From Bacteroidota bacterium (lineage in GTDB: Bacteria; Bacteroidota; Ignavibacteria; OLB7), in NCBI GenBank assembly GCA_018266795.1, contig JAFDZV010000036.1, forward strand, positions 26,971 through 90,970: DNA of 64,000 nucleotides, given 5' to 3'. The notes below the pieces were generated by a model. The model saw only the letters and a list, made by a program, of their open reading frames with translations. It had not been told where the DNA came from and searched no databases. The position numbers and the translations under genes are program-made. Shown one piece after another: positions 3,001-28,457 of this stretch (the first letter of the stretch is position 1; each line of letters opens with the position of its first letter).

Positions 3001-6000
3001 TGGAGTTCCCGGCGGACGTCACGGAGACCTCGATTGCCGAGATGGTGTTCGAGGACTACTTCCTGATGATCATGCGTGTTGTGGTGAATGCGGCGATCGA
3101 TCTGCTGCGGGGGTACACCCAGCCCGGCGACAAGGTGACATCGATCGCCGCTCTGAAGACGAAGTACGGCGTTTCCACCACCGAGACGGTGAAGGCAAAC
3201 CGCCGGACGCCGCTGAAGGTGGGGGCCGTTCTGAATGTGAGCGGCCTGTATGCCACCGCACTGGATCTGGATACGATCGGCAGTCTGCTGGTGCGGGCCG
3301 GCGCCGATGTCACGTTCGAGATGGTGGATGAGCTGGCGAGTATCCACGCGGACCGGCCGGGATTCCTGAAGGGGGGCGCAACGTTCATCTACGACGGGGA
3401 GCCGATCACCATCGGCGCATCGGAAACGCTGACGCAGCTGGGAGCGCGGCTGGAGCCGTGGGCATCGCCGGGTGAGTTTGCATGGATCATATCGGATCTC
3501 GGTGTGCTGGCCGCAAGCACCTCACTCTACGTGCCGCTTGCGGCGCAGCACGCCATCACGGTTGCGGCAGACGATACACTGGCAAAGGTTGCGGCGCGCA
3601 TGCTCACGTTCGGCAGCACGGGCAACGCGGACTTCGTTGGCGAGATGGCAACGCTGAACGCCGATGTACCCGGTGTGCTGCGCGAGGGAACGATCGTGTT
3701 CGGATCGCAGGAGCCGTATCAGGTTGCCCCCGGAGATACGTTGCGCATCGTCGCGGCCGGCGCATTCTACGAGAGCGTGGCCGCGCTTGCCGCCGCCATC
3801 AAGGATGAAGCCGCCACCGTTGCGCCGGGCATACGTCTGGTTGTGCCGCCGCTTACGGCAGCCGCCGCCATGAACGGGCAGGACGCGCCCACACTTGTTT
3901 CGATGGCGATGGCGCGCGGGCTGGATCCGACGGAGCTCGGCCAGCTCAACGTTGCCGTGACGCCGCTGTTCGACTCCACGAGCACGGTGCAGGCCCCGAA
4001 CGTTGCAACGATCGCACTGAGCGAGCTTCGCACGGAGATGTACAAGCGCAAAGTGCTGGTGCAGGTGTCCGGCATTACGTCGTGCTTCGCGCAGCCCGGA
4101 CTCCGCCTTCCGATGCCCTCCGGATGGGCGCCCGGGCAGAACGATTTCTGGATGCTCCCAACCGATACGGAGCCGCTCTACTGGCTCACCGGCCAGCAGT
4201 TCGAGCTTCCGGTCTTCAACGATCCGGTAACGCCCGCGCCGTCGTTCGTTGTCTGGCTGGATGTGCCGCAGAACGCCGTGGGCTGGTACACGCTCCGTCC
4301 GCATCCCTTCGAGCTCACTCCGGATCCGAACAAGCCGGTAAGCGTGCCGTTCGATGCCGCGGCGATGACGTATCTGGACTCGCTTGCAACGGCTCCGTTT
4401 ACAACGGAGATCGACTGGATCAGGTCGCTGCCGAAATTCCGTCTGGAGGATTCGCGGCTGCCGCTGACCAAGCCTGTCGAGATACAGATGCCGGAACAGC
4501 TTTCGTTCGGCAATGGCGGCGGAACGGTGCCGAGCAATGTTGTTCCAACCCTCTGGTCGTTCAGCGAAGTGTTGCGCCGCAGCATCGGCACAACGTCGGG
4601 GTTGGCGTTTGCGCTCAACATCACGCGCGTGACCGCCGGCGCCGAGGAGATGGTTGACACCGTTGCCCGCTACACGTGGGCCACGGCGATCAAGGTGCGC
4701 GTTCGCATCGCCAGAAAGCCGGACGCCGGCATCGTTCCGATGACGTACGATATCGATGGTGCCGATCCGGAGGGGATGCTGAGCCTGGAACGCATTCTTG
4801 CCGACAACGGCGCGGATATTCGCAACGTGCACATTCTCTATCGCGGCGGCGGTGATTCCGGCACGGCCGCCTACAGAAGCGCCGGCACGGGCGGTGTGAG
4901 CGCGTTGATTCTGCGATCGAATCTCTCCACGCTCTCGAATCCCCAGGCGTCGAAGGGACTGGATCCGAAGAGCGTTCCATCGCCGGTCACGAACTACTTC
5001 AACAGCCCGGATTACCGGCGGGCAACGCTGCGCCTTCTCTGGCAGGGGAGCATTGTCCGCTCCGGCGGGTATCATCTCTACTATCGTGAGAACACGCCGG
5101 GCAGGGGATTGCCGGACGACGTGTTCGATGCCGATGGCTCGACCGAGATAACGGTGCTGGTTTCCTACAACGGCACAACGGTTCCCAGGTATGCCAATCG
5201 CGTGATTATCGGTGATGCGATCGATCCAACATGGGGCATTGTCGCAACGGTTCAGCCGAACAACGCTGCATATGCAGCCTCGCAGGTGAAGGTGCTGATG
5301 ATCCCGCCTGGACATGCCGGCTTCCAGCTGTATCGTCACCTGCGAACGATCGCATTCAACGGTCCTACCGCTACGGACACCGTCCACTCGCTCTACAGTC
5401 TGTTGAGTTATCGAGTGCTTGGCGTTCCGGGGCAGCAGGGATTTGCTGAGAGTATCGAGGCGCTGCCGAAGGGGCCGGGGCGACAGCTCATCCCGGATCC
5501 CACGTTTGCACCACCTCCGAACTCCGCACCGTACGAGGTGATGATTCCCGTGGCACCGCTGGCGCTCGACCCGATACCGGCGGGGATGCGCGCCACCACC
5601 AATGCACCCTATGTGGAGAGTCCGTATCGGAATATCGGTGCCACCATGATTGTCCGAACCGATTGGCGGGACGTGTTCGGGAACTCCACGATGAGTGGGT
5701 GGGCGCCCGTATCCGCACAGACCGGGTTTCCGCCGCCGCAGCCGCTCAAGGACGTGCCGGTGTTCATTGGATATACCGACCGGCTTGTAGGCCTTGGCCG
5801 ATGGCCGTCAACGCGAAGTGGATACAAGCTGGGCGGCATCGGGCCGGACGGGAAGCAACGGGCGATCATCCGCCTGGAACTGGACAACCGGCGCTACACC
5901 GCCGGGCCGGACGGGCCGATCAGCGCCACAACGAAGCGCAGCTATCTTCTTGCCGATCTCGACGTGTACCGGACGGCGTACTATCAGCTTATCTGTTCCG

Positions 6001-8741: not shown

Positions 8742-9118
8742 TCGGGGAATGCATGCCTGCGACGACCGGTGGGGACCTTGTCTCCGTCCGGTCGTTGCCT
8801 CGCCGAACCGATGATGGGCGCGGCGTTGCGATCGCGGCATTGCCGTGCGCCGCTGCGGCAACACCGCCGCCGTTCGGCGTGCGTTGCTCGCAGTACCTGC
8901 AGGTACTTGCGAGAAGCTCAACCTCGACTGCGTCAGGGCATTCCTCCGCGATGGCTGCCCGCGGTCTCGGCAGGCGAGCGGAGCGAAGCCGCGGCCACAT
9001 TCCCCGCGCGCGCATCGTTCCGCCGGGTGAACGATGATGCAGGCCGTGCGGGTTGCCCGCGGGCATCCGCTCCGCTGCAGCTGATAACGAACACCTCCAC
9101 GATAACAGGCCAAGGCTC

Positions 9119-10429
<1,311 letters not shown>

Positions 10430-10684
10430 GGGAGGGCGGGCGCCGCCGCCCGGGGCTGCTGCAGGGGAGAATGCAGACGATTGCATCGCGCGCCGCGACC
10501 ACCGTGCCGCGGCGCGCGACCAGAGGCGGGGCCGGCGCTGCAACCGTTGTGGTTGCCGCCGGCAGCGCATCGCTACCGTGAAGAACGCACCATCACCAAC
10601 AGCTTCCATCAACGACCGGCCATCTCCGGCTTCCCCGCGAGATCGCTGCGCTCGGCGGTGAAGGCTTCAAGCGCCGAGACCAGC

Positions 10685-13600
10685 ATGGCTTATTTCAATC
10701 GACATCCGGACTCCGCTCTCTACACCTCGTCGCAGGGATACGGCGGCGGTTACGTAGCGTTCTATCTCTACGGCGACGAGTTCCCGGAGACGCTGACGAT
10801 ACCGGACACGTGGGAGACCCGTGTGGGCTACTATCTCTTCCTGAAGGAGCCGCCTCCGGAGAACGGAATGACGACGTTCGTCGCCGCCGTCAACGGAGCG
10901 CTTTCCGGTTCCGAACCCTGCCATACCAGCTTTGTCTGGTACACCTACAATGGGGCGGATGGATCGCTTGTCGAGATCAAGACGGTGAGTACGAATGCCG
11001 TTCCCGTGGATGACGAGGAAGGGGAGGATCCGGACGAGGACGAGGGGGAGGAGGATTACGAGGACGAGTACACGGTGCTGGTAACGGAGACGGCGCTCTT
11101 CAACTTCGGTGGCTACAAGCTCCCCATCGGCGTGAACATGCGTGTGGTGTACGAGCGCGACGGGGGCAACGACGTCACCGGATTCATCTTCGAATATCCG
11201 GAGGATCCGCAGCCGCGGTATCCGGCGGAGGCAGTTGTCGGGCCGCCCGATCCGCAGCGCAATCTTCACCTGACGTTCAATGGGGATGGCCGAGGATGTT
11301 TCGAGGGGATAGGCTTCATCAGCGATTATTCCGACGATGAGGAAACCGGCTGGTATGTCGGACTGCGATATGTGCTGGCAGTTGGCTGCGGGCTTGTTCC
11401 CCAGTATTACCCGGTGTTCGATTTCGGCGATGAATTGCGTCCGCTGCTCGAGATGCGTTGGGATCCGACAAATCATCTCGATCGCAACCGAACATATCTG
11501 GCATTTACCGGAGAATCGATTGCGCTTGTGGAGGACCCTCCGGATTCCGGCGTGTTCCGGCTGGAGGTTCCGGACAGCCCGGAAATCCTTCCCACATTCT
11601 TTCGTACGGTTACCGGTGAGCGCATAGCCTTTATTCCGGTTACCGAGGGAGAAGGCCGGTCCAAGCTTCTGTTCGAGACACGCGATACGGCTCCGATTGA
11701 ATGCGGCGGCTTCTGCTACTATCTGGTGCCTGCCGGCGAGTTCGAACTGCTGCTGCTGGACGAGTGCGGCGACCCGCTGACGCTTGCTTCCCAGAAGGCG
11801 GAAATGCCCGCCCGCTTCATGTGCGGCCTCTCCGGCATCGAGTCGGTGGGTTTCATGCCGCGCAACGAGTGCTTCGATGGCGATCGCATTCTCTTTGTTC
11901 CGCATTGCGATGCCTTCGTGCCGGCGTTTCCGATCAACGGAAACGGGGGCGGCCTTCCGGATCTCGACGCATTGCGTCTGATTGTGGAAGGGGAGTGCAC
12001 TGCGTGGGTTGGATTCATCGGGCCGAACGGCGAGGCGCGCGAGTTCGTGTACTATGCCCAGCCGGAGGATGCTCCACTCTACACGCGGCCCGGTGTTATC
12101 GCGGGAAGTGCACCGCTTCCGCTTATGGAGCCCGTGGCAGCGCTGTTCGAATCGGTATGCAGCCAGACCTGCTTTCCGGTGGCGCCGCCGGCGGGGGCTT
12201 ATCCTTCCGTTGATGCACCGAACCGTCCAACGTTTCTGAGCGCTCTGGAGCATCAGATCATAGGCCCCTGGCGCCGTGATGTGATCCGCAGAACGGCTGC
12301 GACGGCGCCGGATATCATGGAGCCGGCGACGTCCAAGCCAAGCGGCACTGGTGCCACCCCGCAGGGGTTGATCGCCGATGTTGCAGTGGATTCCTGGACG
12401 TCGCTTCTCCTGGCACAGAACCAGCGGACAAGCACTGTTCTGCGATTCTGGTATCCGGATGAGACACTGAAGGCAGCGTTCCAGACAAACCAGTTGTTCC
12501 TGGTTGCATCGCTCGCGAGCCATTTCACGATACCGAATCCGCAGCAGCCAACGGACAGGCGCTTCGAATCGCGGGTGAACATGGCGGATTGGAAGTTCGA
12601 CCTCAAGCTGTCGGGGAACCAGTTTCAGCGTCTCGACAATCCTGCGGCAGATGATTTCCATGATCTCAACAACACGCTGATCTTCAAGTTCTCGCCCGGC
12701 TCCATCTCAAGCCGGCTGCGCGATCCACGTTCGTGGACCAATCCCGGTGACTTCAATCGTACCAACGATGGGCTGCTCGATCTTCTCGCGCAGCGTCTCT
12801 CGGCATATGTCGCATATGCCAGAACACTTGCCTCCAGCAACGATCCCAAGGTCAGGGCCAGATATGCGCCGTTCATCGAGGTGATCGATGACGATGAATG
12901 GACCGGGATAATCGGTGTGAATATCTCGATCGACATGCAGCTGCTTCCATCGCAGTTGAGTGCATTGAGCGCAGGGGTTGATCAGAATTTCTTCGTGGCG
13001 CATCACATCGTGGTGGAGACAAGCTATGTGAAATTCTCCGAGCAGGGACAGGGACTCATGCCCGCCGAATGCTCGCTGTTTGGTCTGGTGGATTACAAGA
13101 GGCGGCAACCGGCTGTGCCACAGGGAGACGGCGGTAACACTGCTCCTGCGGCGGACTTCGATTTCTCCGTGAGCGACTTCCTCGCCGTGTTCCGTAACGG
13201 GTTGCTCAAGGAGTTCTCGTGCGCCGCAGATCTGAAGATCAACAGATTGTTCGGGGACAACATTACCGGGCTGACCGGAAATGATGGCGCAACGAACAAC
13301 GGTATTCGTCTGATCGGCCAGTACGATGCGCTCAGCAACACGCCGTCGTACGTGTTCACTCTGGAGGGTGGCGGGCAGTTCCAGCTTCAGAGCGCCATTC
13401 TCGAGTGGGTGGAGATTCGCAAGGCGCAGTTCTCGGTTCGGGAGGAGGCCGTGCCCAACAGGGGAAAGGACATGTATTGTGCCTTCGTCTTCTGGGGGGT
13501 CATGAAATTCCGCAGCATGGGGCTGACGGGGGACGCCGGGAACCTGGATATTTTCTCCTACGATGCGCTTGCATTCGAAGGAATGGCGCTGCGTATGAAG

Positions 13601-14260
13601 TTCAACATGGATTCGCCATCCGACAGGACATTTACCTTCGACAGCAGAACGATCGCTCTGGATACGGCCCCCGCGGTAACTATTCCGCGCGGCCAGAGCC
13701 TCGCAAAGAAATTCCCGATGCGGCTGCAGACGTTCATGTCATCGGACGCGGGGAAATTGCCCAAGGACCTGGGATACGTGGCTGTGGGTACGCAGTTGGC
13801 AGCGCAGCCGGTTGCGGCGCCATGGTATGGTCTCGACTATACGCTGAACCTCGGCACACTTGGTGAGTTTGCCGCCAATGCCGGGATTACCGTGCAGCTT
13901 GCCGTTACGTGGAGCCCTGGAGGGCCTTCGCAGCCACGCGCCCAGGTGTGGTTGAAGTTCCCGGGTGTCGGCGGCATCGGGAATGATCTGTTCAGCCTGG
14001 AGGGGGTCGTGAAATTTTCTGCGAGCTCGTACAGCCTGAAGGCCTTCACTGACGACGACGATATCGGATACCTGCTGACGCTGAACAGTATGGCGCTCCG
14101 CATTCTCGGCGTTGGAATTCCGTTCGGAGGCGGGCCGAATATCTACGTCTTCGGTCCGCCCAAGAGCCCGGCCCTGCTGAGCCCTACGGCAACGCCGAGC
14201 GACGATGCCCTGGGCTGGTTTGCCGTGTATCCGAAGCCTGCACCTCCGGGCGGCGGCTGA
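10685..14260 (+). CDS. Hypothetical large protein (1,191 aa) with a poly-acidic insert; family not recognised
   Basis: Long ORF. I prefer the ATG at 10685 (MAYFNRHPDS...) because the 68 codons from the track's TTG at 10481 are Arg/Pro-rich and look non-coding. Acidic run DDEEGEDPDEDEGEEDYEDEY at 11009-11070. No signal peptide, no TM segment, no YD/RHS repeats seen. Confidence 0.75.
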   Translation: MAYFNRHPDSALYTSSQGYGGGYVAFYLYGDEFPETLTIPDTWETRVGYYLFLKEPPPENGMTTFVAAVNGALSGSEPCHTSFVWYTYNGADGSLVEIKTVSTNAVPVDDEEGEDPDEDEGEEDYEDEYTVLVTETALFNFGGYKLPIGVNMRVVYERDGGNDVTGFIFEYPEDPQPRYPAEAVVGPPDPQRNLHLTFNGDGRGCFEGIGFISDYSDDEETGWYVGLRYVLAVGCGLVPQYYPVFDFGDELRPLLEMRWDPTNHLDRNRTYLAFTGESIALVEDPPDSGVFRLEVPDSPEILPTFFRTVTGERIAFIPVTEGEGRSKLLFETRDTAPIECGGFCYYLVPAGEFELLLLDECGDPLTLASQKAEMPARFMCGLSGIESVGFMPRNECFDGDRILFVPHCDAFVPAFPINGNGGGLPDLDALRLIVEGECTAWVGFIGPNGEAREFVYYAQPEDAPLYTRPGVIAGSAPLPLMEPVAALFESVCSQTCFPVAPPAGAYPSVDAPNRPTFLSALEHQIIGPWRRDVIRRTAATAPDIMEPATSKPSGTGATPQGLIADVAVDSWTSLLLAQNQRTSTVLRFWYPDETLKAAFQTNQLFLVASLASHFTIPNPQQPTDRRFESRVNMADWKFDLKLSGNQFQRLDNPAADDFHDLNNTLIFKFSPGSISSRLRDPRSWTNPGDFNRTNDGLLDLLAQRLSAYVAYARTLASSNDPKVRARYAPFIEVIDDDEWTGIIGVNISIDMQLLPSQLSALSAGVDQNFFVAHHIVVETSYVKFSEQGQGLMPAECSLFGLVDYKRRQPAVPQGDGGNTAPAADFDFSVSDFLAVFRNGLLKEFSCAADLKINRLFGDNITGLTGNDGATNNGIRLIGQYDALSNTPSYVFTLEGGGQFQLQSAILEWVEIRKAQFSVREEAVPNRGKDMYCAFVFWGVMKFRSMGLTGDAGNLDIFSYDALAFEGMALRMKFNMDSPSDRTFTFDSRTIALDTAPAVTIPRGQSLAKKFPMRLQTFMSSDAGKLPKDLGYVAVGTQLAAQPVAAPWYGLDYTLNLGTLGEFAANAGITVQLAVTWSPGGPSQPRAQVWLKFPGVGGIGNDLFSLEGVVKFSASSYSLKAFTDDDDIGYLLTLNSMALRILGVGIPFGGGPNIYVFGPPKSPALLSPTATPSDDALGWFAVYPKPAPPGGG

Positions 14261-14371
14261 GGTATGCGTGCGATCGTACACCTGGCCAGGCCCGAAATGC
14301 CGGGGACACGGATCCCGCCTGAAGAGAGAACGAACCATCACAACAAACAGTCACGACTCAGGAGAGAAGCC

Positions 14372-15637
14372 ATGCGCAGAATCAATGCGGCGGTATATCT
14401 GCTGCTGTTAACCATAGCGGTCGCAGCGCACGCTGCTCCAATGCAGACCTTGAAGATATACCACATCGGTGTGGGGCAGGGAGATTGCACATTCATCATC
14501 GCGAAAAAGGAACAGTCCAGGAAAGCACCAATCGTTGTCAGTGCGTTGATCGATGTTGGTTCCGGGCCGATCGTGCGAGCGGGGCGCGATCCAGCGTTGC
14601 TTTGGGCTGCCCTCCTGCAGATTATGGGCGAGAATTCAGTGCCGACGATCAATTATCTGATTCTCTCGCACCTGGATGAAGATCACATGGGGGCAGCGGA
14701 GGGATTGCTGTACGTTCTCGAGCGTCCCAATTTCAAGAAATATGCCAAGGGAATGATTGTGGTGGACAGAGGATGGCTGGACCCATCGACGAAGCCGACG
14801 GGGACAATCTATACCGGATTCGAGGGGCGTTTCGGAACCGGAAAGCCGTGGAGGCGGAAGAAGATTGATGTGAAGGAGAATTTGTTCGATGGCTACTTCG
14901 ACAACATGAAAATGTGGTGCGTTGCCGCCAACGGAGTGTCGCTGCAACCGAGAAATGGTGATCCGACAAAATGGAACAGGAGAGTGCTTGTACCGTCTGG
15001 TTCCCTGAATGAGAACGATCGCTGTTACGGTTTTCTGATCGAGTTCGATGGCTTCCGGTACTTCACGGCCGGCGATATGACCGGGTACGACGTCGACAGC
15101 CAGCACAATATCGAGCTTGGGTTCTCCGATTTTCTTACCCAGTGCATGCAGCGTGCGCAGCCCTCGGATGGGAACTGCCATGTCTGCTGCCTGAAGGTAA
15201 ATCACCACGGCAGTATCAACAGCACCAACCCGGATTTCGTGACCGCCACAAAGCCGAGGCTTGCGGTATTCTCGTCGGGTCTTCAGATGTTCAGCAACGG
15301 GCGACTACCACAGCAGGCCGTTGCAACACGGCTTCGGACAAATAACGCAGCGTGCAGTTTCTTCTACACCTACTGTCCCACGAATATTGCCGATCCGTAC
15401 GACGGTACGGTTCAGGACAACGATCCACTTTTCTTTACCGATCAACTGGATCGATGGCAGGATATCGTTGTCTCTGTTTCCCGCCCGAGTGCAAATCTCG
15501 TGGCAAATCGATTATACGGCGATGATATCACGATGAAGGTACAGGCCTGCTATCGTGATCGGTCCACGTTTGCCCGCACATCCAATCTGCGTGATCTGCC
15601 GGACGTTGTCTGCAGCAAGAAACACCCTGCACCGTAA
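14372..15637 (+). CDS. Secreted metallo-beta-lactamase-fold hydrolase, ComEC/Rec2 C-terminal-domain-like (421 aa)
   Basis: ATG at 14372 is preceded by GGAGAG. N-terminal signal peptide MRRINAAVYLLLLTIAVAAHAAP. The strand HIGVGQGDCTFII is typical of ComEC-type MBL domains, and the metal motif is LSHLDEDHMGG (HxDxDH-like). A later KVNHHGS motif is also present. Confidence 0.75.
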   Translation: MRRINAAVYLLLLTIAVAAHAAPMQTLKIYHIGVGQGDCTFIIAKKEQSRKAPIVVSALIDVGSGPIVRAGRDPALLWAALLQIMGENSVPTINYLILSHLDEDHMGAAEGLLYVLERPNFKKYAKGMIVVDRGWLDPSTKPTGTIYTGFEGRFGTGKPWRRKKIDVKENLFDGYFDNMKMWCVAANGVSLQPRNGDPTKWNRRVLVPSGSLNENDRCYGFLIEFDGFRYFTAGDMTGYDVDSQHNIELGFSDFLTQCMQRAQPSDGNCHVCCLKVNHHGSINSTNPDFVTATKPRLAVFSSGLQMFSNGRLPQQAVATRLRTNNAACSFFYTYCPTNIADPYDGTVQDNDPLFFTDQLDRWQDIVVSVSRPSANLVANRLYGDDITMKVQACYRDRSTFARTSNLRDLPDVVCSKKHPAP

Positions 15638-15653: not shown

Positions 15654-18600
15654 ATGAGCCTTCAAACCTTCTACAATTCGCTTGGTGGAGACACCCCGCC
15701 GAATCCGATTGTCTTTGAGCTGGATGAGGATACTGTCGATCCGATCCTGATGCTGCTTACGCTCCTCGAGGTGGATCGGCTGGAGGTCGACATCGTTGGT
15801 GAGGGTGAGCATGATCCGCCATTCGGCATGGTATATACCGCGGACGACCAACCCATGACGATTCGTGGGAGCGCCGAGATGTACGGTGTTGCAACGACCG
15901 TGCTTCTTGTGTTCGTTCAGGACGCCGAGACCGATGCAATCCAGGGAACCCTTACAGCAGCGCTTGATATTACTTCGATTCAGGCGCTCTCGGATTCCGG
16001 TATCGCCGTCATCGCCAACATGGCGGACATCGCTGCGATGCCCGAAGCCGGAGTAGTGCTGGAGGTACTGGGCAATCTTTCGTTGACCACGTCGACGGCC
16101 GATCGCACGTTCGTTGTTCAGTCCGGGATCAAGGACGGAACCACCCGTGTGTTCCAGTCGCCCGCGGTTTCATTTACCGGATTGAACGTACGGGTTGATC
16201 GCGTCATTGGCGATCCGGCCTCGGAAGATGGGCCTGGTGCTCCTGTCACGACGTTGAGTGTAAAGGGGGCGTTCACGGTCTGCGGCCAGGCGCTGGACGT
16301 GACGGTGGATATTCCCGTTGGGGGAGTGGGCTCCACAATGTGGCGCTTCGCATTCACCAGTCCAACCGGATTCGGTCTCGATTCGCTTGTGGATCTGCTC
16401 AATGCATTCGGTGTCGGCGGGCAATTCGCTGCACTTCCCGATCGCATCAGATTGCTCTCCGCATTCCGGTTCATGGGCTTCGAGGTGATCGCCGATCCCT
16501 TCCCGTCGATCGCAAGCATCGAGGTCCTCTTTGCGATCACCGGCGACTGGAACGTCGTAGACACCGTTACGCTGCACAATATTACGTGCTCGCTGCTGGT
16601 CCAGAATCCGTTCAACGGACCATCTGCGCTTCTGAGGGCGAGCGGTGTGTTTACCGTTGGCGGCATTGATCTGGGGACGACACTGCTTATCCCGATAGGT
16701 GGTGGTAACTGGCTCGTGCGGTGTACAACCGACAGCGACAGCATCAATCTGCTCACGATGTCGCAACTGCCGGGGCGCTTCGACCTGAGCTCGCTTCAGG
16801 CACCGATCGGCACACAACAGCAGCTCGATGTTGTTCTGAACGATCTTACGGTTGTCTTCAATCCCATTGCGCGCACAATTGGAGCGATCTCGATCGCAGT
16901 GCGATATGCGGCTACGTGGAATGCCCTTGTCTACAATGGCGAGACGGTACTGAGCGTAACCAATCCTCAGTTCGTGATCGCCATCGATTCACCTCTGTCG
17001 AATAATCGCCGCGTCACGGCAAGCATCTCAGGGTTCGTGGCCTTTTACGATCTGATCAATGCGAGTTTCGAGATGACCAGATCGGGAGGAAGGTGGGCGT
17101 TTGCCGCCGAGACCACCAAACCGATTCGTCTCCAGGCGATCTTCGACAAGTTTTTTCCAACGTATCCGGAGTGGCTGGACGCGATCAAGGGATTTTCAAT
17201 CACCCAGATCGTGTTCAATTATACGACGTCGGGCGGGAGCCAGCCCGGTGTCTTCAATCTGAGTGCCCGCATCGAGGCCAATTGGGATTATGCACTCGGC
17301 GGCCAGACCGGTTCCATTCAACTGACCTCCATCAGCGCATCGGTTGGATCGCAGCCCGATCCTGCTCAGCCTGCGCAGCGGATCTGGACGTTCGCCGTTG
17401 CCGGCACCGTGCGCCTGTACGACACGTTCAACCTGACAGGCTCGTTCCAGTATCGTACAGGCAATGGTCCCGGATCGGGTGCCGAGATCGCCGTCGAGTT
17501 CGATGGCGTGCGTGGTGTCTACAACTCCACCAACAAGCGCATCGACGTCTCACTCGGGAATCGCACCGTCGGCGATCTGGTAAATACGCTCAACCGATTG
17601 GTCAACGGTCCCGCCACGCCGGACTATCAGTTCGAGTCGCCATGGGATCTCGTTGCCGGCATCAGCCTGCAGGGGCTGGTATTCAGCTTCTACTTCGACG
17701 GCAACAGCCAGAAGCGCTGCGGTATCACCTATCGTTTCCCGACGCCCGTCGATCTCGGCTTCATGAAGATTGTCTCGGTCTCGGTGATTGTGACGACCAC
17801 CAAGAAGATTCGCTTCGAGGCCGACGTGATTCCGTTCACGGCAACAACGCCGTCGCCGTTCGGATGGAATCTCGATGATGCGAATGTCCCGAAGCCGCCG
17901 GGCCGCTCGGCACGCATCCTCGATCTCAAGTACCTCGGCATCGGCCAGCGGCTCGAGCTGATGTCGGCGAATGCCACCCGCTCCGTTGACGACGGGATCG
18001 CTGCGATGAAGACCGCGTTCGCGATCCCGTCGGCAACCAGCCATCCGCTTACAGGCATGCAGGCCGGCCTGCGCTACAACCCGCAGATGAACTGGCTTGT
18101 GGGGGCGGACTTCCAGTTGTTCGGGGCGTTGGCGATCGGCTTCATCTTCAACGACAGCAACATAGCCGGTGTGCGCGTTGGCGTGGATGGCGATCGCTTC
18201 CGCTATCTCGGCGGCCTGAAGTTCGAGATCCTCTACAAGAAGGTAACCGAGAGCATCGGCGTGTACCAGATGGAGATCCGCGTGCCGGATTCCATCCGCC
18301 AGATCGAGCTGGGGCAGGTTTCGATCACGCTTCCGATCATCGCCTTCGAACTCTACACGAACGGCAATTTCAAGGTGGACTTCGGATTTCCGAAGGACAA
18401 TGACTTCTCCCGTTCGTTCATGATTCAGGTGTTTCCATTCCTGGGAGCCGGTGGTTTCTACTTTGCGCTGCTGGAGGGGGCAACATCGCCGCGTCTGCCG
18501 GCCAACTACAATCCGAACACCGGTGTGTTCCGTCCCGTGTTGTCGTTCGGCATCGGGCTCAGTCTGGGAGTGGGCAAGAGCATCAACCGCGGCATCTTCT

Positions 18601-21600
18601 CGGCGCAGCTCAGCATCACATTCGAGGGAATTCTGGAAGGGGTGATCGGCTTCTTCAACCCGACGAGCGGGAGCGGAACCGAGATCTACTACTGGCTTCA
18701 GGGCACGCTCGGCGTGGTTGGCCGGATCCAGGGAAGCGTGAGCTTCGCCGTCATTTCCGCAAGCGTCTCGCTGGTTGTGTACGCGCGTATCGGGGCCACA
18801 TTCGAATCATACCAACCACTCGTGCTCTTCTTCGAGGCCGGTGTGGATGTGAACCTTACGGTGCGCATCGGCGTTGGCTGGCTGAGCACCGATGTCAGTT
18901 GCTCCTTCTCCACCAGCATCCGCGAGTCGTTCACGATCCCGGTGCGCGGCAATGGAACGGCGCCGTGGGTTGGCGGCGGCCAGCATGCGTTGGGCCACGG
19001 CGCCGGGCCGCACGGTATGATCGGATCGAGTGCGGTGGCGCCGAAGGAAATGGGGGTTCTCCGCTGGAGAACGATCGACATGGCCGGCACGGGCGACGAA
19101 GTTCTTCTGGAGTTCCGTCCGATGTATACCGTGGCGGAAGGGCCGAACGGCCAGAAGTCCAACTACGTGGCAATGCTGTTTCTGCGCAGTGCATCGCAAT
19201 CGGAACGCGAGAACGACCATCGGACTGTCAACGAGATTCAGGCAACGGACTTTGAGGCGCTTGCAACCGGCATGTTGGTGTGGGCGATCAATGCATCGGT
19301 GAATGCCAACAACCAGACTGCCGTCAATGCGGGCAACATCGAGACCGAACTCCTTAACAAGGACGTCCGGATTGATCACCTGCAGGAAGTGTTCGATTCT
19401 CTGGCACGCCGGGCAGGAGCGGCTGCGAGTTTCGAGACGCAGCAACTGCTGGATTTCCTCCACCTGTATTTCACGATGGTGATCGTCCCATTGCAGCAGA
19501 ACCGGCATTCACCGAATGGTGGCAGCTCCGATGACCGGCCCACGCTGGCAGTGTTCCCAATGCCGCCGGACCTGGAACTGAAGGCGTTCTACGATGACGC
19601 GACCGTGGCCGACATCGACTTCGCCTCCTACAACATGGTACCGGACAGCTATTCCGGCGAGATCGCCAACCACTTCAAGGAAATCGCCATGCAGTTCCAG
19701 ACAGGGCTGGAAGCGAGCGTTGACGCGAATGAAATGCAGGCTGCGCCGGAGTATACGGGCGACGAAGAGTCCATGGCATCCTATGTCTTCGACGACTATT
19801 TCATGCTCCTTGCGCGTGGGGTGGTACATGCGGCCATGGATCTGCTGAAGAATTATTCGATTAAATCTGCCGGGGAGACTCTTGCCGCCCTGGCGACCAC
19901 CTATGGGGTTTCCCCGGGTGAGGTGGGCGTTGCAAATGCGGATCTGGCGATCACCGCACCGGCCACACTGCAGCTTGGCGGTGTGGCGGTAACCACGACG
20001 GCTACCGATACGCTCGCGGCATTGGCCTCGGACAGGGGGTTCCCGAACGACAATGGTTTCCTGGAGAGCCTCGGTCGCCTGAATGCGCTCACACCCGGAC
20101 TCGTGGCAACGGACACGGCGATCACGATCGGCGACGACTCAATCGATGTTGCAGAAAACGAGACGTTGTACTCCATGGCGACGAGGCTCCATGCTTCACC
20201 GGGTGCGGTTGCCGTCACGATTGCATCGCGGCAGGTGCTCAATGCCGATACGAGGCTGCTTCTTCCAACGGTTCCAACCACGTATCTCACCGTTGGGAGC
20301 GAGCCCAATCTGCGCTGGATCGCGTCCAACTACGTTGCAACGCCGGACTTCCAGTTCGAGACGGACTTCGCGCTCGCGAACGCGTTCGTTCCGGGGATCT
20401 TCGTTCCGGGAACCATCTTCACGATGGCGACCGGAGATGCGTACCAATCCATCGCGTCCGACTCGCTTGCAACAATTGCGGCGGCGGTGGGCTTCACCGT
20501 GGAATCGGTGGCGGGAGCCAGCAACGAGCTTTCCGGCATCATCGCTCCCGGAGTTCGCCTTACCATCCCTCCGGTGTCGGTTGCGCTGGAGGGTGCGCCA
20601 ACGTTGCGCCAGGTGCAGACAACCTATGGAGCCGGCATCGCGGCAGTGGCTGCGGCCAACGCCGCAACCCTTGTGCTGGGTGCGGCGGGCGGTTGCATTG
20701 AGCTGCCGAATGTGAAGAAGATCAAGATCGGAACGCTGAGGAAGGAAATGCTGCAGCGCGATCTGTTGATCGATCTTGGCGGCACGGTCTCGCGATTCAT
20801 GGTGCCGGGCCTGCGGCTGCCGCTCCCGACGCAGCAGCAGAATCCCGAGCCCGGCCTGTGGCCGAACTGCGAACCGGATGGATTGTATCGCCTTACCGGC
20901 CAGCAATTCGAGTTGGACAACCCGCTCGGCGGGCAGAACGGACCCGATCTGGATGTTATGCTGGTTGGCGGAGCCAACGCAGGCTGGTATTCGATGCGCG
21001 GGGACGCGGAGAACTACGAGAACCCCGAGAACGACGAGGTGTATGAAAATCCTGTGCGTGTCACGCTCGAGTGGGCTGACCTCGACAAGCTCGATCAGCT
21101 TGCCGCAGAGCAATTGCTGGTTGACGCGTCGCCCTACCGGAAGATCCCGATGTCGCAGACGCAGTTGAAGCGCTTCCCGCTTGGGCGTCCCGTGCAGATT
21201 CAGATGTCCGGTGCGTTTGCCTATGCCGTTGGAACGGCTCCCAACGGCGTGTTGCCGACCATCCTCAACTTCTCCGAGGGAATGCGCCGCGTGCTGGCGG
21301 TGGCCAGGAATCCGGAGCAGCGTTTCGATCTCGCGCTGGAGCGGCCGGACGGATCCGCTGCGGCGCTGAACGTCTACTCCTGGGCTACGGCAATCACCGT
21401 GAAGGTGCGTCGCGTTCGCCTGCCCGATGGTTCCATTGCTGCAATGACCTACGAGCTGGACGGTGCCGACGCCGAGGGGACGCTGACGCTGGAGAAGATC
21501 GTTGCCAGGGGAGGAACGTCCGGCTTCGGGTTCATTCAGGATATACATCTTCTCTTTGCCGGCCAGGGAGTTGGAGCGTTGCAGACCGACGGGCCGAATG

Positions 21601-24600
21601 CAATCAGTGCCTTCATCCTGCAAACCAATCTCTCCACGCTCACCAACCCGCAGGGGTCGAAGAGCATGGTGGCGGCGAAGGACGTACCGGCTGCGGTCGC
21701 AAATGATTTCAAGGACAACCGTGCCGAGATTCTGCGAGTACTGTGGGAGGGAAGTATCGTTCGCTCCGGCGGATACTATCTCTACTATCGGTGCGGTGGT
21801 GCATCGCGAGGGCTGCCGGACAGCGCGTTCAAGGATGACGGTACGGCGGACATCACGCTGTTGATCACCTATGGCTACGGGGCCGGCAATTATGCCTCCA
21901 GCGGGCTGCCGTCGTTCGTGAACCGGGTGGTAGTGGGGGCGGATGTTACCGTGGCTTCCGTGTTCGCAGTCTCGCACGAGCAGTCGATATCGGTAGCGGT
22001 GAACGGCACCACGACGCTCAGCCAGCTGATGGCCTCGTATCACACAAACCTTGCGGATCTGGCCGTGGACCTTGGCGGACAGGGGCTGAGCGTGGAGTCG
22101 ATTCCCGTTCCCGGTGCAGTGTACCAGGTGGCGCACGGCGGCGAGACGCTGGGCGCGGTTGCCAACCGATTCCATCTTGGCATCGATGCCATCAAAAGCG
22201 CGAACACGGATCTCGATGCGGGCCTCACCGCCGACAGCGAGTTGACCGAGTACCTGACCCTCGTGATCCCGCCGTTCACGCATCCGGTAGCTGCCGGGCA
22301 GAACCTTGCAGGCATTGCCGGCACATACAATGTGCCATTGACCGATCTCGTTGCTCCGCTTGCCGGCTCTGCAATCTTCGCTGCCGGACCGAATGTGAAC
22401 ATCCGCAGTCGCCTGGTAACGAAGTCGCCCACGGTGCCGCCGGGACACACCGGATTCCAGCTGTTCCGCGTGCCTCAGGAGACTCCGACAGTGCATGATG
22501 AGCCCACAGCCGCACAACAGTTGGAATCGCTCTACAGCCTGCTTGCATACTGGCTGGTGCAGAACCAGTGGTGCGATGGAAGCATGGAGGGACTGCCGCG
22601 CGGACCGGGGGAGGAACTGGCGGAGTTCACGGATCTTCCGGACGTGGAGGATCGGTGGAAGTACGAACAGGTACTGCCTGCGTACCGGTTTGTTCACAGC
22701 GCACTCCCGGCCGCCAACCCATATCGAGGGGTGGGTACGCTCGTGGAGATCGGCGTGGATTGGCGCGACGTGTTCGGCAATCTCCTGAACTACGTCTTCG
22801 AGGTTGATGGATGTTGGGGATCGAACGTTCTGCCGATCCGCCTGGGCTACACCGACGAAGTAATCGGAATCGGGCGTTGGCCGTCTGTGCGGTCATCCTA
22901 CAGCATGGGCTTCGATGCGAACTCGAATCCGACGAACGACATCGTACTGGAGTTCGATGTTGCGCGCTACCTGGTTACCCCGGAGGGTGAGCAGGCAAGT
23001 CTGGGGGATGTGTACAATATTGCCGGCGCCGACTACGAAGCATACACGCGCATCGCAAATCAGCTTGCCTGTGCCGATGTCACAGCCTGGGGAAGCACCA
23101 CGCTGGGCGGCCCGTCGCAGCCGCTCAGTATTGCCGCAATCCGTGCCTGGGTGGGAAGCATCGTAAGCTTCCTGGATCAGCTGTTCGCGGTGCTTATCGA
23201 CCCGGATGCGCCGCAGCCGCAGATCCCGGACGATCTCACGCTTCCGATCCCTGCCTCGCTTACAAACAACGAGGCGATCTTCCCGTTGATCGTTCGTTTC
23301 GGCATCGAGCGTACCGGGCGTATCGACGATGCATTCCTCGACATGCCCGCCGTGCGCGAGGCTACCGAGGACATCGAACCCGCCGGGCCGATCAAGGACT
23401 TCGCCGCGAACTTCGAGTGCGTCTATGGGGGGGCGAAGCTGGCCGCGGGCCTCTCGCGTCTGGAGGATACGGAGACCGATTCACGCAATCGGCTCTGGGT
23501 GGTGAAGCTGGGGCAGCTCAACGGCAATAATCGCGACCAGGGCCCATCGAATCCGAACAAACGGTTCCAGTATGCCGTCGACGATCAGCAGCAGGTGTTC
23601 TTCGCACCGATTCCGCTTGCTACGTCACCCATCGGATCGGAAGATCTGAACGTCTACAACTACGTTTCCGGACAGGGGCTGGCCGATGCAGTCACCAGGA
23701 AAACCTACAAGGGGGTTGATCTCGATGCCTGGGCCCGGACGTTCCTGAATGCGGTGGACACGATTCTGCTTCCTCAGTATGCAACTCCGGCACATCTGCT
23801 CGATCTTGGAAGCGCTGCTCCGGCGGGCTCGCGCGCGCTCGAGAAGATTATCGCTGCGAAGCGAATGATTGCCGGCGCCATCACGGGAATGGTGCAGGAG
23901 ATTGGAGACACAGGACGGGGAAACCTGGGCGAGGCCAGCGAGTTCTTCAGTCAGCGACTGCTGGTTCGATTGTCGGCAGCGTATGAAACCGATGCGATCG
24001 TTCAGCTGGGAGTAAACGTGGACTCGCCGTATGCCGATGCGGATACCACGTACGTACCGAAGCTGTATGGGCAGACAGTGGGACGGCGGCCGGGAACGGA
24101 GGAGTCGAAGCCGGAGTTCACGCTCTCCACGGCACGTGTTCCACTGGCACGCGAGAGTCAGTACCTGACATTCCTTTTCAGTGCGGAGACGGCGCTGCCC
24201 GAACAGATGTTCGAGGTGGATGTAGAATTCAACGTCAGCGCATTGGAATACCAGATTGCCGACGTGCCGGGCATTACCGATTATCGCGCGTCATCGTGGC
24301 TCACATTCATCATTCCACCCGACTCGCCAACCGTGCGGGCTGCTGTTCCGGTACCGATCCGGAAGTTCCCGCCCACGCCGACGTTGATCGAGCAGGAATT
24401 GATCACCACGGTTGACGCCACCGATGATGAGGAGGAATACAATGCGCTTACGCTTGCCGAGACGCGTGAATGGCAGTATGCATATACATACGAGCGGGTG
24501 CAGGGGACGCACGATGTAATCTTCACCTCCCCTCGATTCAATGTGGCCAACAGCGAACTGCCTCACGGCATCGGTGCGGAGGATCCCGATCTGTTCCAGG

Positions 24601-25769
24601 CGCTGGCGATGTTCGATCACGCCTGGGATGCCATCCAGCAGGATCTGTTCGATCCGTTGGTCAAGATCAGGCAGGGCGTTGCCGGTGCCGACGACGGCAA
24701 GGCCGATGCCGCTCTCACAGCGTTTGCCGCAATTGCATCCAAGGTTGCATGCGCATGGGGACGCTGGTTGTGCGATCGCGATTTCTACCGGCCGTCGTAC
24801 GGGACGGAAGATCCATACCTGTACGTGGTAAGCGAGGATGATCGCGACATCCTAGTCGAGGCGCAGGTGGTGCGGCGGTTCACGATAGCCGTCAGAGTCT
24901 GCCGCGGCCAGGCGGACGTTCCTCTACCGCGTATAGATGTCGATGGTTGGGAAACCCACCCGGTGGACAACGTATTGCCGGGATGGCGGATATTCTGGTA
25001 TTCAGCAGTAGGAGAGAACGGAACGGAGATCCTGGACAAGGATACTGCTGCGGAGGACCGCCAGCGAACGGTGGTATTCGAAACACTGGATATCCTGAAC
25101 AAGCAGAATGCATGGGGAGGGGTGTACACAACCCGGAACGAGAACATCTTCAACGATGCCGCCTGTAATCCGACTGCTTCCATTCATACGAATCGGGAGT
25201 TCATCTATCGTACTCCGATGGTTCGCTTCGGAAATCTGCTGACCCCACTCATCGAATATGACGGGACGATCGATGTCGGGAGTCTGAGTCCCGCGGAGCC
25301 GAGCCCGAAGGGAATCGGGAGCCACATCGGCACGTTGTTCACGAAGTTCTTCGAAGGGATTCAGAATCCGGCGCCGAACGAGACCCGAAGCATTCGCGTG
25401 GATTGCAGGTATGAGTATCGTCTGGGGAATCCCTATGGGATCGTGAGTCCGATGATCGTTACGCTGCCGATTGCTATGTCGCCGCCGTTCGATTTCCGGA
25501 TACATGCGGACGAGGACGCGACATGCCCGCAGCAGGCTGCCACTTTCACCTGTGCGCTTGCCGATGCGATCACCGCCTGGTACTACGCGCGGTTGCCCGA
25601 GCGGGATCAGGGGCGGTTCATTTTCGACATCGCAGTCTATTCAAGCCTGGGGAATACAGGCAAGCTGCCGATCTACCACGTGAAGTCCTTGCGGTTGAAT
25701 CTGAGCGACGTGAACGATCTGACCGAGGATGATTGCGACGACGACGGTGGCGACGGCACGGGAGGATGA
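15654..25769 (+). CDS. Giant protein, paralog B (3,371 aa); two LysM-like repeat arrays; family not recognised
   Basis: ATG at 15654 (MSLQTFYNSLGGD...) is preceded by GAGGAAG and lies 16 nt after the MBL stop. The ORF is uninterrupted to 25769. It is collinear with paralog A, with islands of high identity such as FEILYKKVTESIGVYQ..., NAWGGVY..RN.N.F...AACN....HTN..F.YRTPMVRFG.LLTPLIEYD, and VFDI.VYSSL....KLP.Y. No signal peptide and no T9SS-type C-terminal domain; the protein ends DDCDDDGGDGTGG. Confidence 0.85.
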   Translation: MSLQTFYNSLGGDTPPNPIVFELDEDTVDPILMLLTLLEVDRLEVDIVGEGEHDPPFGMVYTADDQPMTIRGSAEMYGVATTVLLVFVQDAETDAIQGTLTAALDITSIQALSDSGIAVIANMADIAAMPEAGVVLEVLGNLSLTTSTADRTFVVQSGIKDGTTRVFQSPAVSFTGLNVRVDRVIGDPASEDGPGAPVTTLSVKGAFTVCGQALDVTVDIPVGGVGSTMWRFAFTSPTGFGLDSLVDLLNAFGVGGQFAALPDRIRLLSAFRFMGFEVIADPFPSIASIEVLFAITGDWNVVDTVTLHNITCSLLVQNPFNGPSALLRASGVFTVGGIDLGTTLLIPIGGGNWLVRCTTDSDSINLLTMSQLPGRFDLSSLQAPIGTQQQLDVVLNDLTVVFNPIARTIGAISIAVRYAATWNALVYNGETVLSVTNPQFVIAIDSPLSNNRRVTASISGFVAFYDLINASFEMTRSGGRWAFAAETTKPIRLQAIFDKFFPTYPEWLDAIKGFSITQIVFNYTTSGGSQPGVFNLSARIEANWDYALGGQTGSIQLTSISASVGSQPDPAQPAQRIWTFAVAGTVRLYDTFNLTGSFQYRTGNGPGSGAEIAVEFDGVRGVYNSTNKRIDVSLGNRTVGDLVNTLNRLVNGPATPDYQFESPWDLVAGISLQGLVFSFYFDGNSQKRCGITYRFPTPVDLGFMKIVSVSVIVTTTKKIRFEADVIPFTATTPSPFGWNLDDANVPKPPGRSARILDLKYLGIGQRLELMSANATRSVDDGIAAMKTAFAIPSATSHPLTGMQAGLRYNPQMNWLVGADFQLFGALAIGFIFNDSNIAGVRVGVDGDRFRYLGGLKFEILYKKVTESIGVYQMEIRVPDSIRQIELGQVSITLPIIAFELYTNGNFKVDFGFPKDNDFSRSFMIQVFPFLGAGGFYFALLEGATSPRLPANYNPNTGVFRPVLSFGIGLSLGVGKSINRGIFSAQLSITFEGILEGVIGFFNPTSGSGTEIYYWLQGTLGVVGRIQGSVSFAVISASVSLVVYARIGATFESYQPLVLFFEAGVDVNLTVRIGVGWLSTDVSCSFSTSIRESFTIPVRGNGTAPWVGGGQHALGHGAGPHGMIGSSAVAPKEMGVLRWRTIDMAGTGDEVLLEFRPMYTVAEGPNGQKSNYVAMLFLRSASQSERENDHRTVNEIQATDFEALATGMLVWAINASVNANNQTAVNAGNIETELLNKDVRIDHLQEVFDSLARRAGAAASFETQQLLDFLHLYFTMVIVPLQQNRHSPNGGSSDDRPTLAVFPMPPDLELKAFYDDATVADIDFASYNMVPDSYSGEIANHFKEIAMQFQTGLEASVDANEMQAAPEYTGDEESMASYVFDDYFMLLARGVVHAAMDLLKNYSIKSAGETLAALATTYGVSPGEVGVANADLAITAPATLQLGGVAVTTTATDTLAALASDRGFPNDNGFLESLGRLNALTPGLVATDTAITIGDDSIDVAENETLYSMATRLHASPGAVAVTIASRQVLNADTRLLLPTVPTTYLTVGSEPNLRWIASNYVATPDFQFETDFALANAFVPGIFVPGTIFTMATGDAYQSIASDSLATIAAAVGFTVESVAGASNELSGIIAPGVRLTIPPVSVALEGAPTLRQVQTTYGAGIAAVAAANAATLVLGAAGGCIELPNVKKIKIGTLRKEMLQRDLLIDLGGTVSRFMVPGLRLPLPTQQQNPEPGLWPNCEPDGLYRLTGQQFELDNPLGGQNGPDLDVMLVGGANAGWYSMRGDAENYENPENDEVYENPVRVTLEWADLDKLDQLAAEQLLVDASPYRKIPMSQTQLKRFPLGRPVQIQMSGAFAYAVGTAPNGVLPTILNFSEGMRRVLAVARNPEQRFDLALERPDGSAAALNVYSWATAITVKVRRVRLPDGSIAAMTYELDGADAEGTLTLEKIVARGGTSGFGFIQDIHLLFAGQGVGALQTDGPNAISAFILQTNLSTLTNPQGSKSMVAAKDVPAAVANDFKDNRAEILRVLWEGSIVRSGGYYLYYRCGGASRGLPDSAFKDDGTADITLLITYGYGAGNYASSGLPSFVNRVVVGADVTVASVFAVSHEQSISVAVNGTTTLSQLMASYHTNLADLAVDLGGQGLSVESIPVPGAVYQVAHGGETLGAVANRFHLGIDAIKSANTDLDAGLTADSELTEYLTLVIPPFTHPVAAGQNLAGIAGTYNVPLTDLVAPLAGSAIFAAGPNVNIRSRLVTKSPTVPPGHTGFQLFRVPQETPTVHDEPTAAQQLESLYSLLAYWLVQNQWCDGSMEGLPRGPGEELAEFTDLPDVEDRWKYEQVLPAYRFVHSALPAANPYRGVGTLVEIGVDWRDVFGNLLNYVFEVDGCWGSNVLPIRLGYTDEVIGIGRWPSVRSSYSMGFDANSNPTNDIVLEFDVARYLVTPEGEQASLGDVYNIAGADYEAYTRIANQLACADVTAWGSTTLGGPSQPLSIAAIRAWVGSIVSFLDQLFAVLIDPDAPQPQIPDDLTLPIPASLTNNEAIFPLIVRFGIERTGRIDDAFLDMPAVREATEDIEPAGPIKDFAANFECVYGGAKLAAGLSRLEDTETDSRNRLWVVKLGQLNGNNRDQGPSNPNKRFQYAVDDQQQVFFAPIPLATSPIGSEDLNVYNYVSGQGLADAVTRKTYKGVDLDAWARTFLNAVDTILLPQYATPAHLLDLGSAAPAGSRALEKIIAAKRMIAGAITGMVQEIGDTGRGNLGEASEFFSQRLLVRLSAAYETDAIVQLGVNVDSPYADADTTYVPKLYGQTVGRRPGTEESKPEFTLSTARVPLARESQYLTFLFSAETALPEQMFEVDVEFNVSALEYQIADVPGITDYRASSWLTFIIPPDSPTVRAAVPVPIRKFPPTPTLIEQELITTVDATDDEEEYNALTLAETREWQYAYTYERVQGTHDVIFTSPRFNVANSELPHGIGAEDPDLFQALAMFDHAWDAIQQDLFDPLVKIRQGVAGADDGKADAALTAFAAIASKVACAWGRWLCDRDFYRPSYGTEDPYLYVVSEDDRDILVEAQVVRRFTIAVRVCRGQADVPLPRIDVDGWETHPVDNVLPGWRIFWYSAVGENGTEILDKDTAAEDRQRTVVFETLDILNKQNAWGGVYTTRNENIFNDAACNPTASIHTNREFIYRTPMVRFGNLLTPLIEYDGTIDVGSLSPAEPSPKGIGSHIGTLFTKFFEGIQNPAPNETRSIRVDCRYEYRLGNPYGIVSPMIVTLPIAMSPPFDFRIHADEDATCPQQAATFTCALADAITAWYYARLPERDQGRFIFDIAVYSSLGNTGKLPIYHVKSLRLNLSDVNDLTEDDCDDDGGDGTGG
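19851..20718 (+). other. LysM-like repeat array 1 of paralog B (positional equivalent of 3114-4005)
   Basis: Segments include NYSIKSAGETLAALATTYGVSPGEVGVANADLAI, TTTATDTLAALASDRGF..., DVAENETLYSMATRLHASPGAVAVTIASRQVLNADTRLLLP, TMATGDAYQSIASDSLATIAAAVGFTVESVAGASNELSGIIAPGVRLTIPP and LEGAPTLRQVQTTYGAGIAAVAAANAA. Assigned by eye. Confidence 0.45.
21969..22430 (+). other. Paralog-B-specific insertion carrying about 3 more LysM-like repeats
   Basis: B reads ...VVVGADVTVASVFA[VSHEQSI...154 aa...RLVTKSP]TVPPGHTGFQLFR. A reads ...VIIGDAIDPTWGIVATVQPNNAAYAASQVKVLMIPPGHAGFQLYR. The insert contains YQVAHGGETLGAVANRFHLGIDAIKSANTDL and HPVAAGQNLAGIAGTYNVPLTDLVAPLAG. Confidence 0.5.
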
Positions 25770-28098: not shown

Positions 28099-28457
28099 AT
28101 GATCCCTCGTCGATTGAAGTACCGCCCGCCGTTCCTCGTGAAGCGGCTTCCGATGCCGGTCGTGGAGACGGATGGGCTGAGTCCGGGTGATATGCCGGGC
28201 GCTGCGGCATGGACGAACACATTCGGCTTGACGATGCAGCCGGGGCCCACCGTGATGTTCGGACCGGATGATGCTGCCGCAGGCGCAGTGCCGGCCGGCG
28301 TGCTGTTGAAATCGAGGTTGGCCTGCACGAAGGGGTTGACGAGGCCGGAGAAGAGGCAGCGCGCGTACGGTCCGATCCGGAGACTGATGCTGCTGATGCC
28401 GTTGCCCGACGTGTTGGAGTAGCCGATGGCCATGGTACTGCGTTGCATGCAAGTCAT
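28095..28457 (-). CDS. Small basic Gly/Ser/Pro-rich hypothetical protein, translationally coupled to the acyltransferase
   Basis: Its stop TGA (28097-28095) overlaps the acyltransferase ATG (28098-28096) as ATGA. Third-codon positions are strongly G/C-biased across the ORF. Start is ambiguous (Met codons at 28490, 28457, 28448, 28433). Composition is 1 Asp and 0 Glu against 8 Arg/Lys. No family recognised. Confidence 0.45.
   Translation of the reverse strand: MTCMQRSTMAIGYSNTSGNGISSISLRIGPYARCLFSGLVNPFVQANLDFNSTPAGTAPAAASSGPNITVGPGCIVKPNVFVHAAAPGISPGLSPSVSTTGIGSRFTRNGGRYFNRRGII

Follow-up and report, generated by a model that had tools for sequence, protein, structure and literature searches.

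Two giant paralogous proteins of a Bacteroidota bacterium carry internal arrays of degenerate LysM domains and belong to a widespread family of giant LysM repeat proteins

LysM is among the best-known carbohydrate-binding modules, and in bacteria it has been characterised in small, secreted proteins, either wall hydrolases or adhesins, that contain one to six modules. AcmA of Lactococcus lactis, for example, is a secreted peptidoglycan hydrolase with a C-terminal array of three LysM modules, and the NlpC/P60 endopeptidase of Thermus thermophilus has been shown to bind chitohexaose. Here we describe LysM arrays in a 64,000-nucleotide stretch of DNA (the window) from a Bacteroidota bacterium of the Ignavibacteria lineage OLB7 (GenBank assembly GCA_018266795.1, contig JAFDZV010000036.1, positions 26,971 to 90,970). 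Two paralogous proteins encoded in it, giant A and giant B, each contain six consecutive, degenerate LysM units at equivalent internal positions, and both belong to a family of giant LysM repeat proteins that spans more than ten phyla. The binding target and site of action of these giants could reveal a new envelope-targeting or envelope-building system, and the proteins offer a test of whether LysM can work without a classical route of export.

The characterised LysM systems resemble the giants in some respects and differ from them in others. AtlA of Enterococcus faecalis has tandem LysM modules, six in number as in A and in the first array of B, and its multivalency raises binding to glycan chains (PMC4083421). 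Proteins of the AtlA and AcmA type possess a signal peptide and a catalytic hydrolase domain, however, whereas the giants have no signal peptide, as judged by a hydropathy scan, and no recognised catalytic domain. The AtlA array is terminal and is organized as a string of beads joined by low-complexity linkers of 16-23 aa, whereas the arrays of the giants are internal with linkers of 2-7 aa, and the 1-6 LysM modules per protein (PMC4083421) compare with up to 28 in the giant family. The N-terminal pair of LysM domains in T. thermophilus NlpC/P60 (4uz2, 4uz3, 4xcm) is the best match of a profile made from the units described here, over the full module length, and its domains are likewise closely spaced, but it belongs to a small enzyme (about 250 aa) that has a catalytic domain, and its identity to any single unit of the window is low. 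A third parallel is the baseplate protein of phage-tail-like systems (PLTS), extracellular contractile injection systems (eCIS), Afp and PVC, in which LysM is part of a signal-less, multi-protein assembly conserved across many phyla (PMC4122934). That small protein carries a single C-terminal LysM domain and is encoded beside sheath, tube, VgrG, gp25 and baseplate-J genes, whereas no Pfam or PHROG match to any of these was seen in the neighbours in the window or in the Pseudomonas locus of the family, and the giant, partner and small upstream open reading frames (ORFs) of the latter gave no PHROG or Pfam match beyond LysM in the giant. An eCIS or phage-tail module was therefore rejected, its hallmark genes being absent. 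The architecture of the giants, with multiple internal LysM arrays, no signal peptide, and a partner and hydrolase encoded alongside, thus departs from that of every characterised LysM protein. The initial annotation had called multi-copy LysM in signal-less proteins of more than 3,000 aa unusual, and this holds against the characterised LysM proteins, but not against the giant family, with its 1,169 or more clusters that annotation pipelines already label as LysM.

Giant A is encoded by an uninterrupted ORF (3..8741, +; GC content at third codon positions 0.78) that enters from beyond the start of the window; it is identical to residues 367-3278 of the 3,278-aa database protein P0074, its N-terminal 366 aa lying outside the window. 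Giant B is also encoded by an uninterrupted ORF (15654..25769, +; 3,371 aa) which begins with an ATG shortly after the preceding gene stops at 15637. Alignment of A and B shows them to be paralogues over their full length, with identity that peaks at 75% around B aa 880-1080 and is about 30% across the LysM array region.

The array of A (aa 1038-1333, nt 3114-4001, +) consists of six units at 3114-3245, 3249-3398, 3405-3539, 3549-3707, 3717-3851 and 3861-4001, which are detected by a unit hidden Markov model (HMM) trained on the family with independent E-values (i-E) of 4e-10 to 7e-5. Array 1 of B (aa 1401-1686, nt 19854-20711, +) likewise has six, at 19854-19982, 19989-20135, 20142-20270, 20283-20429, 20442-20573 and 20580-20711 (i-E 4e-13 to 8e-6). 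About five units at equivalent positions had been proposed in each paralogue, within 3114-4005 of A and 19851-20718 of B; the positions, coordinates and residue pattern hold, but not the count, as both stretches divide without remainder into six contiguous units of 41-53 aa, in the same order and separated by 2-7 aa. B contains a second array of three units (21987..22409, +; aa 2112-2252; i-E 5e-3, 7e-7 and 2.5e-8), an insertion of about 150 aa that appears as a gap in the A/B alignment and is missing from A. At the array-2 position relatives have two to four units, followed downstream by an array of 8-10 units that neither A nor B contains.

At a threshold of i-E ≤ 0.01 the family-trained HMM thus detects 15 units, six in A and nine in B, as against none in 50 shuffles of the two proteins, and 32% of the unit pairs exceed the 95th percentile of the scores obtained with shuffled pairs. 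For five of the six units in array 1 of B, the best-scoring unit of A is the one at the equivalent position (B1-A1 55, B3-A3 63, B4-A4 56, B5-A5 78, B6-A6 35), from which it follows that the six-unit array is older than the duplication that gave rise to A and B. The exception is B2, which scores 56 with A4 and 33 with A2; units 2 and 4 have in common a longer loop between the two helices. No tandem repeat exists in the arrays at the DNA level, and a repeat of that kind was accordingly rejected; the repeats are old and detectable only in protein sequence.

That the units are genuine but degenerate LysM (CBM50) domains, as their LysM-like pattern had suggested, is supported by several approaches. 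An independent profile was made from the 15 window units only, a set that covers the arrays in full and so was not cherry-picked, and this profile was run against every PDB sequence; the top 16 matches all contain LysM (4uz2, E=7e-12; 4xcm, E=1e-10), and they include T. thermophilus NlpC/P60, YkuD, SleL/YaaH, AtlA, Ecp6 and CERK1. The homologous arrays of relatives match Pfam LysM (PF01476) in all 12 cases tested, with a best E-value of 6e-41, and the Pseudomonas and Streptomyces members do so at 4.6e-59 and 3e-32 with no other domain. Units of relatives are near-canonical (GDTL...N...G...IP) in their hundreds, with D7 in 85%, T8 in 94% and N27 in 79%, and the family consensus unit, YTVQAGDTLASIAAAFGVTVADLAAANADVPGLLAAGATLTIPG, is a textbook LysM. 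With Pfam LysM itself the two window proteins score positively, though their matches are marginal: the fragment 19851-20718 reaches 22.6 bits (E=1e-4), the fragment 3114-4005 reaches 20.9 bits, which is exactly the gathering cut-off (20.9), and the whole of B reaches 28.6 bits (E=1.3e-6), its best stretch falling in array 2 (aa 2196-2221 in the numbering from a GTG start). The beta-alpha-alpha-beta fold anticipated for 19851-20718 is also predicted, in that an AlphaFold2 model of B aa 640-1720 made with 21 family members (mean predicted local distance difference test score, pLDDT, 73.8) places these elements where expected in all six units of array 1, with pLDDT of about 66-90. Of the 15 window units, 14-15 retain the hydrophobic core residues L9, I12, L23 and L40, while T8 is retained by 12 and D/E7 by 10.

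The giants belong to a large family, recognized by the conserved core FEILYKK...YTNGNF...FPFxGxGGFYF, for which an exhaustive HMMER search returned at least 1,169 representatives of 50%-identity clusters at E ≤ 1e-3. Members are 2,500-5,569 aa long, mostly 3,000-4,500 aa, and relatives were located at 202 places in GTDB species genomes and on 9 plasmids, with core identities of 40-69% to 80 genomic loci. The phyla represented include Bacteroidota, Acidobacteriota, Chloroflexota, Actinomycetota, Bacillota, Cyanobacteriota, Planctomycetota, Gemmatimonadota, Myxococcota and Pseudomonadota, and the carriers, among them Pseudomonas, Burkholderia, Streptomyces, Paenibacillus, Nostoc and Sorangium, are soil, water and host-associated bacteria; both diderms and monoderms are represented, the latter by Streptomyces, Paenibacillus and Lysinibacillus. 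Homology extends over B aa ~600-3350, that is to the C-terminus, in the alignment with most relatives. Among 118 full-length representatives the number of LysM units varies from 0 to 28 (median 13.5) and protein length follows approximately 3,220 aa plus 49 aa per unit, the units of relatives being grouped in several arrays at fixed insertion points of a conserved scaffold of about 3,200 aa, with a median linker of 4 aa.

A and B share with this family the full-length scaffold, the core, the internal LysM arrays and an upstream partner of about 1,150 aa. They lie at the low-copy end of the family, A also being near the low end in unit quality, and they differ from other members in their fewer and more degenerate units, in a metallo-beta-lactamase (MBL) rather than an endonuclease/exonuclease/phosphatase (EEP) neighbour, and in a lineage-specific collagen-like gene. 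B aa 640-1720 is 87% identical to the Kapabacteria protein P0165, and the closest relative genome is a metagenome-assembled genome of Candidatus Kapaibacterium, in which the core is 98% and the neighbouring genes are 43-93% identical. LysM is the only Pfam domain in the family members examined. Pfam and NCBIfam searches of A and B likewise gave LysM alone, with no peptidoglycan hydrolase catalytic domain, and PADLOC and PHROGs gave no match; a PDB sequence search found no relatives of the core, of whole B or of the partner, with no match outside the LysM units, and tblastn returned no phage matches.

What was already known is the LysM domain itself together with pipeline labels on the homologues, which are named 'LysM peptidoglycan-binding domain-containing protein', as is P0165, or 'LysM repeat protein'; examples are HVZ41237.1 (the Kapabacteria orthologue), WP_273995198.1 (Burkholderia) and WP_013436642.1 (Mycetohabitans). 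Literature searches by accession, by giant gene with LysM and by rhizoxinica with LysM found no paper on the family, and a preprint on giant genes of Omnitrophota does not mention LysM; the family is present only as automatic annotation. At the level of the window the result is a modest one, namely that A and B can be annotated as degenerate members of a giant LysM repeat family.

A word-index protein search with the LysM region returned no homologues, and one with the core returned gene fragments only, full-length giants in the same collection not being returned. The loci of the core-matching fragments (L001-L005) are frameshifted long-read assemblies, and the family may be underrepresented in catalogues that rely on gene calling from assemblies of this kind. 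In four of these (L001-L004, long-read metagenome contigs from ENA) frameshifts break the giants up into dozens of short gene calls. Several plasmids encode the giant as two genes in succession (L087, Mycetohabitans rhizoxinica pBRH02; L088, Paenibacillus pART37; L089, Tistrella pTM1), which suggests that its modules are separable; in Tistrella a gene for a Hint-domain protein precedes the locus.

Two genes directly upstream of B appear to function with it. The conserved partner gene (10481..14260, +) has 1,259 codons and encodes about 1,150-1,260 aa, with a likely start at the ATG at 10682; it gave no match to Pfam, NCBIfam, PADLOC, PHROG or PDB. By tblastn a homologue is found in 75 of 85 loci, in 58 of which it is clustered directly upstream of the giant on the same strand, and in locus L080 it is fused to the N-terminus of the giant. 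The slot between partner and giant often holds a hydrolase, usually EEP-like (WNIQFF...SDHLPI) and in this lineage MBL-fold. The protein encoded there in the window (14264..15637, +) is MBL-fold hydrolase-like, with ComEC/MBL and LmuA-type matches, and a translation start at Met37 (nt 14372) would give it an N-terminus resembling a signal peptide (MRRINAAVYLLLLTIAVAAHAAP), a feature that points to an extracytoplasmic site of action; in locus L064 (Niastella) an MBL domain is fused to the N-terminus of the giant. Because the operon is conserved and such fusions occur, giant, ~1,150-aa partner and EEP or MBL hydrolase probably constitute a multi-protein unit. A protein of about 440 aa is often encoded further upstream of the partner in family loci.

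The most conserved region of the family (18096..18938, +; B aa ~814-1095) is all-beta in the AlphaFold2 model and ends in six amphipathic strands of about 20 residues, in which hydrophobic residues alternate with small or polar ones. Foldseek found nothing significant with this region (best E=0.012), its top matches being LptD, ushers and porins, followed by perforin, membrane attack complex (MAC), gasdermin and pleurotolysin pores. As modelled, the region appears to share strand architecture with membrane barrels but not membership of a barrel family, since signal peptides are lacking and the family occurs in monoderms; an outer-membrane barrel (porin, TonB-dependent receptor or Omp85) was rejected on these grounds and on the Foldseek result. 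We would speculate that this domain inserts into lipid or wraps around it.

As to the role of the arrays, we somewhat favour the view that they are multivalent anchors to N-acetylglucosamine (GlcNAc) polymers, peptidoglycan or chitin, which tether the scaffold to a cell wall, as the domain family suggests. The arrays would act as low-affinity, high-avidity anchors for GlcNAc-containing polymers and so hold the scaffold on the wall, where the scaffold, with its barrel-like amphipathic beta-sheet, would act together with the ~1,150-aa partner and the EEP or MBL hydrolase. As the giants have no signal peptide and the family is found in diderms and monoderms alike, they would have to reach the wall by non-classical export or through release by lysis, as do tailocins, eCIS and Tc toxins. 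The LysM baseplate protein of phage-tail-like systems, which likewise lack signal peptides, sets a precedent for this (PMC4122934). Glycan binding, location, and whether the wall bound would be that of the producer or of a target are matters that we infer. The LysM modules of AtlA bind peptidoglycan additively, and their contacts, which lie in the beta1-alpha1 and alpha2-beta2 loops, are mostly to backbone amides, so that LysM binding tolerates sequence drift (PMC4083421). A copy number of 0-28 on a constant scaffold is more readily explained by an avidity module than by a structural element that is fixed. Several observations nevertheless weigh against wall anchoring. Neither B nor full-length A (P0074) has a hydrophobic N-terminal segment, hydropathy revealed no signal peptide or convincing transmembrane helix in A, B or the partner, a hydrophobic N-terminus occurs in just 1 of the 113 full-length relatives, and the annotated loci showed no genes for secretion or lysis. 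The loop hallmarks are eroded in the window units, with G6 kept in 5 of 15, N27 in 8, G37 in 8 and P43 in 6, and only one of the 15 units reaches E ≤ 0.01 against Pfam LysM by itself. The linkers, 2-7 aa in the window with a family median of 4, are much shorter than the 16-23 aa of AtlA, and units so joined may pack into a rigid body; moreover, the PDB matches of the 15-unit profile also include the trypanosome mitoribosomal protein uS10m, where the LysM fold occurs in a non-glycan setting. The missing export signal, the short linkers, the eroded loops and the mitoribosomal LysM fold are also consistent with a LysM fold kept without glycan binding, whether lost or never present, the units serving as structural spacers or protein-protein modules in a large cytoplasmic or particle-like assembly. 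Such a role accords with arrays that are internal, between conserved scaffold blocks, with cores conserved while loops are eroded, and with the constant place of a LysM protein in the baseplate of phage-tail-like systems that have no signal peptide (PMC4122934); it is harder to reconcile with the hundreds of near-canonical units in relatives and with a copy number that varies while the scaffold stays constant, and we regard it as possible but doubtful.

It is also conceivable, although improbable, that the arrays are functional in relatives but are decaying, dispensable relics in these two Kapaibacterium proteins. With 6 units in A and 8-9 in B the paralogues fall well short of the family median, the mean unit score of A (17.0) lies between the 5th (16.0) and 25th (18.4) percentiles of the family, A has no array 2, and both lack the large array found at residues ~2,500-3,200 of relatives, in the relatives' own numbering. 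Yet at about 30% identity both paralogues retain all six units at matching positions, with their cores intact, and the Kapabacteria-type relatives P0101, P0110 and P0100 have six units each; this conservation of unit order and of the residues that determine the fold indicates purifying selection on the fold and makes decay the less likely reading. That the likeness to LysM arose by chance or from an Ala/Gly/Thr-rich composition, the repeats being some other small helical module such as a helix-turn-helix, is effectively refuted. The rarity with which single units pass Pfam would accord with it, as would a single-unit AlphaFold2 model from a shallow 15-row alignment, which shows two helices only and for which Foldseek gave non-significant matches to CBM50/LysM mixed with helix-turn-helix proteins. 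With the family alignment, however, six units model as beta-alpha-alpha-beta, and neither the exclusive LysM matches at the top of the profile search (E=7e-12), nor the absence of any unit from 50 shuffles, nor the match of homologous arrays to Pfam LysM at 6e-41 would be expected by chance. A bolder extension of the wall-anchoring proposal, which we put forward tentatively and think rather unlikely, is that the LysM arrays form the wall-binding part of a new three-part machine, horizontally spread and released independently of Sec, for example by lysis, that latches onto the peptidoglycan or chitin of other cells and breaches or modifies their envelope. If so, its conserved parts would be a signal-less scaffold of 3,000-5,500 aa, with up to 28 LysM units and a porin-like beta-sheet, the ~1,150-aa partner and the EEP- or MBL-fold hydrolase, and it would be a toxin or delivery system of giant size, directed at cell walls and with no relation to Tc toxins, eCIS, Rhs proteins or bacteriocins.

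An adhesin of a type I secretion system was considered and rejected, since RTX repeats are lacking and neither the window nor the four annotated plasmid loci contain genes for an ATP-binding cassette or membrane fusion protein. Genes for secretion, lysis, phage tails or defence systems were not recognized in Pfam, PADLOC and PHROG scans of the neighbours in the window and of the Pseudomonas locus.

Between giant A and the partner gene lies a gene for a collagen-like Gly-X-Y protein (9053..10429, +; Pfam Collagen, 2e-31) with about 250 residues of triplets, a globular C-terminal domain and no signal peptide. Its matches to PHROG tail fibres come from the repeats alone. The C-terminal domain is common only to the closest loci (L006, L007 and L009), and the gene accompanies the giants in this lineage only. 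Directly downstream of B, on the opposite strand (25886-26938, -), is a gene for a protein with a three-transmembrane YLATT domain and a prokaryotic YEATS domain, which probably lies outside the system as it is common only to L006. The remainder of the window is ordinary chromosome, with genes for a peptide chain release factor, MnmA, UvrA, a TonB-dependent receptor and glycosyltransferases. A pair of genes at 43616-46455 (-) encodes a MoxR-type AAA+ protein (bpMoxR) and a von Willebrand factor A (VWA) protein, as in MoxR-vWA ternary systems, and a 1,206-aa protein encoded at 28808-32428 (-), adjoined by an acyltransferase gene at 27202-28452, is a fusion of two family 2 glycosyltransferase (GT2) domains, a methyltransferase, tetratricopeptide (TPR) repeats and GT4/GT1 domains.

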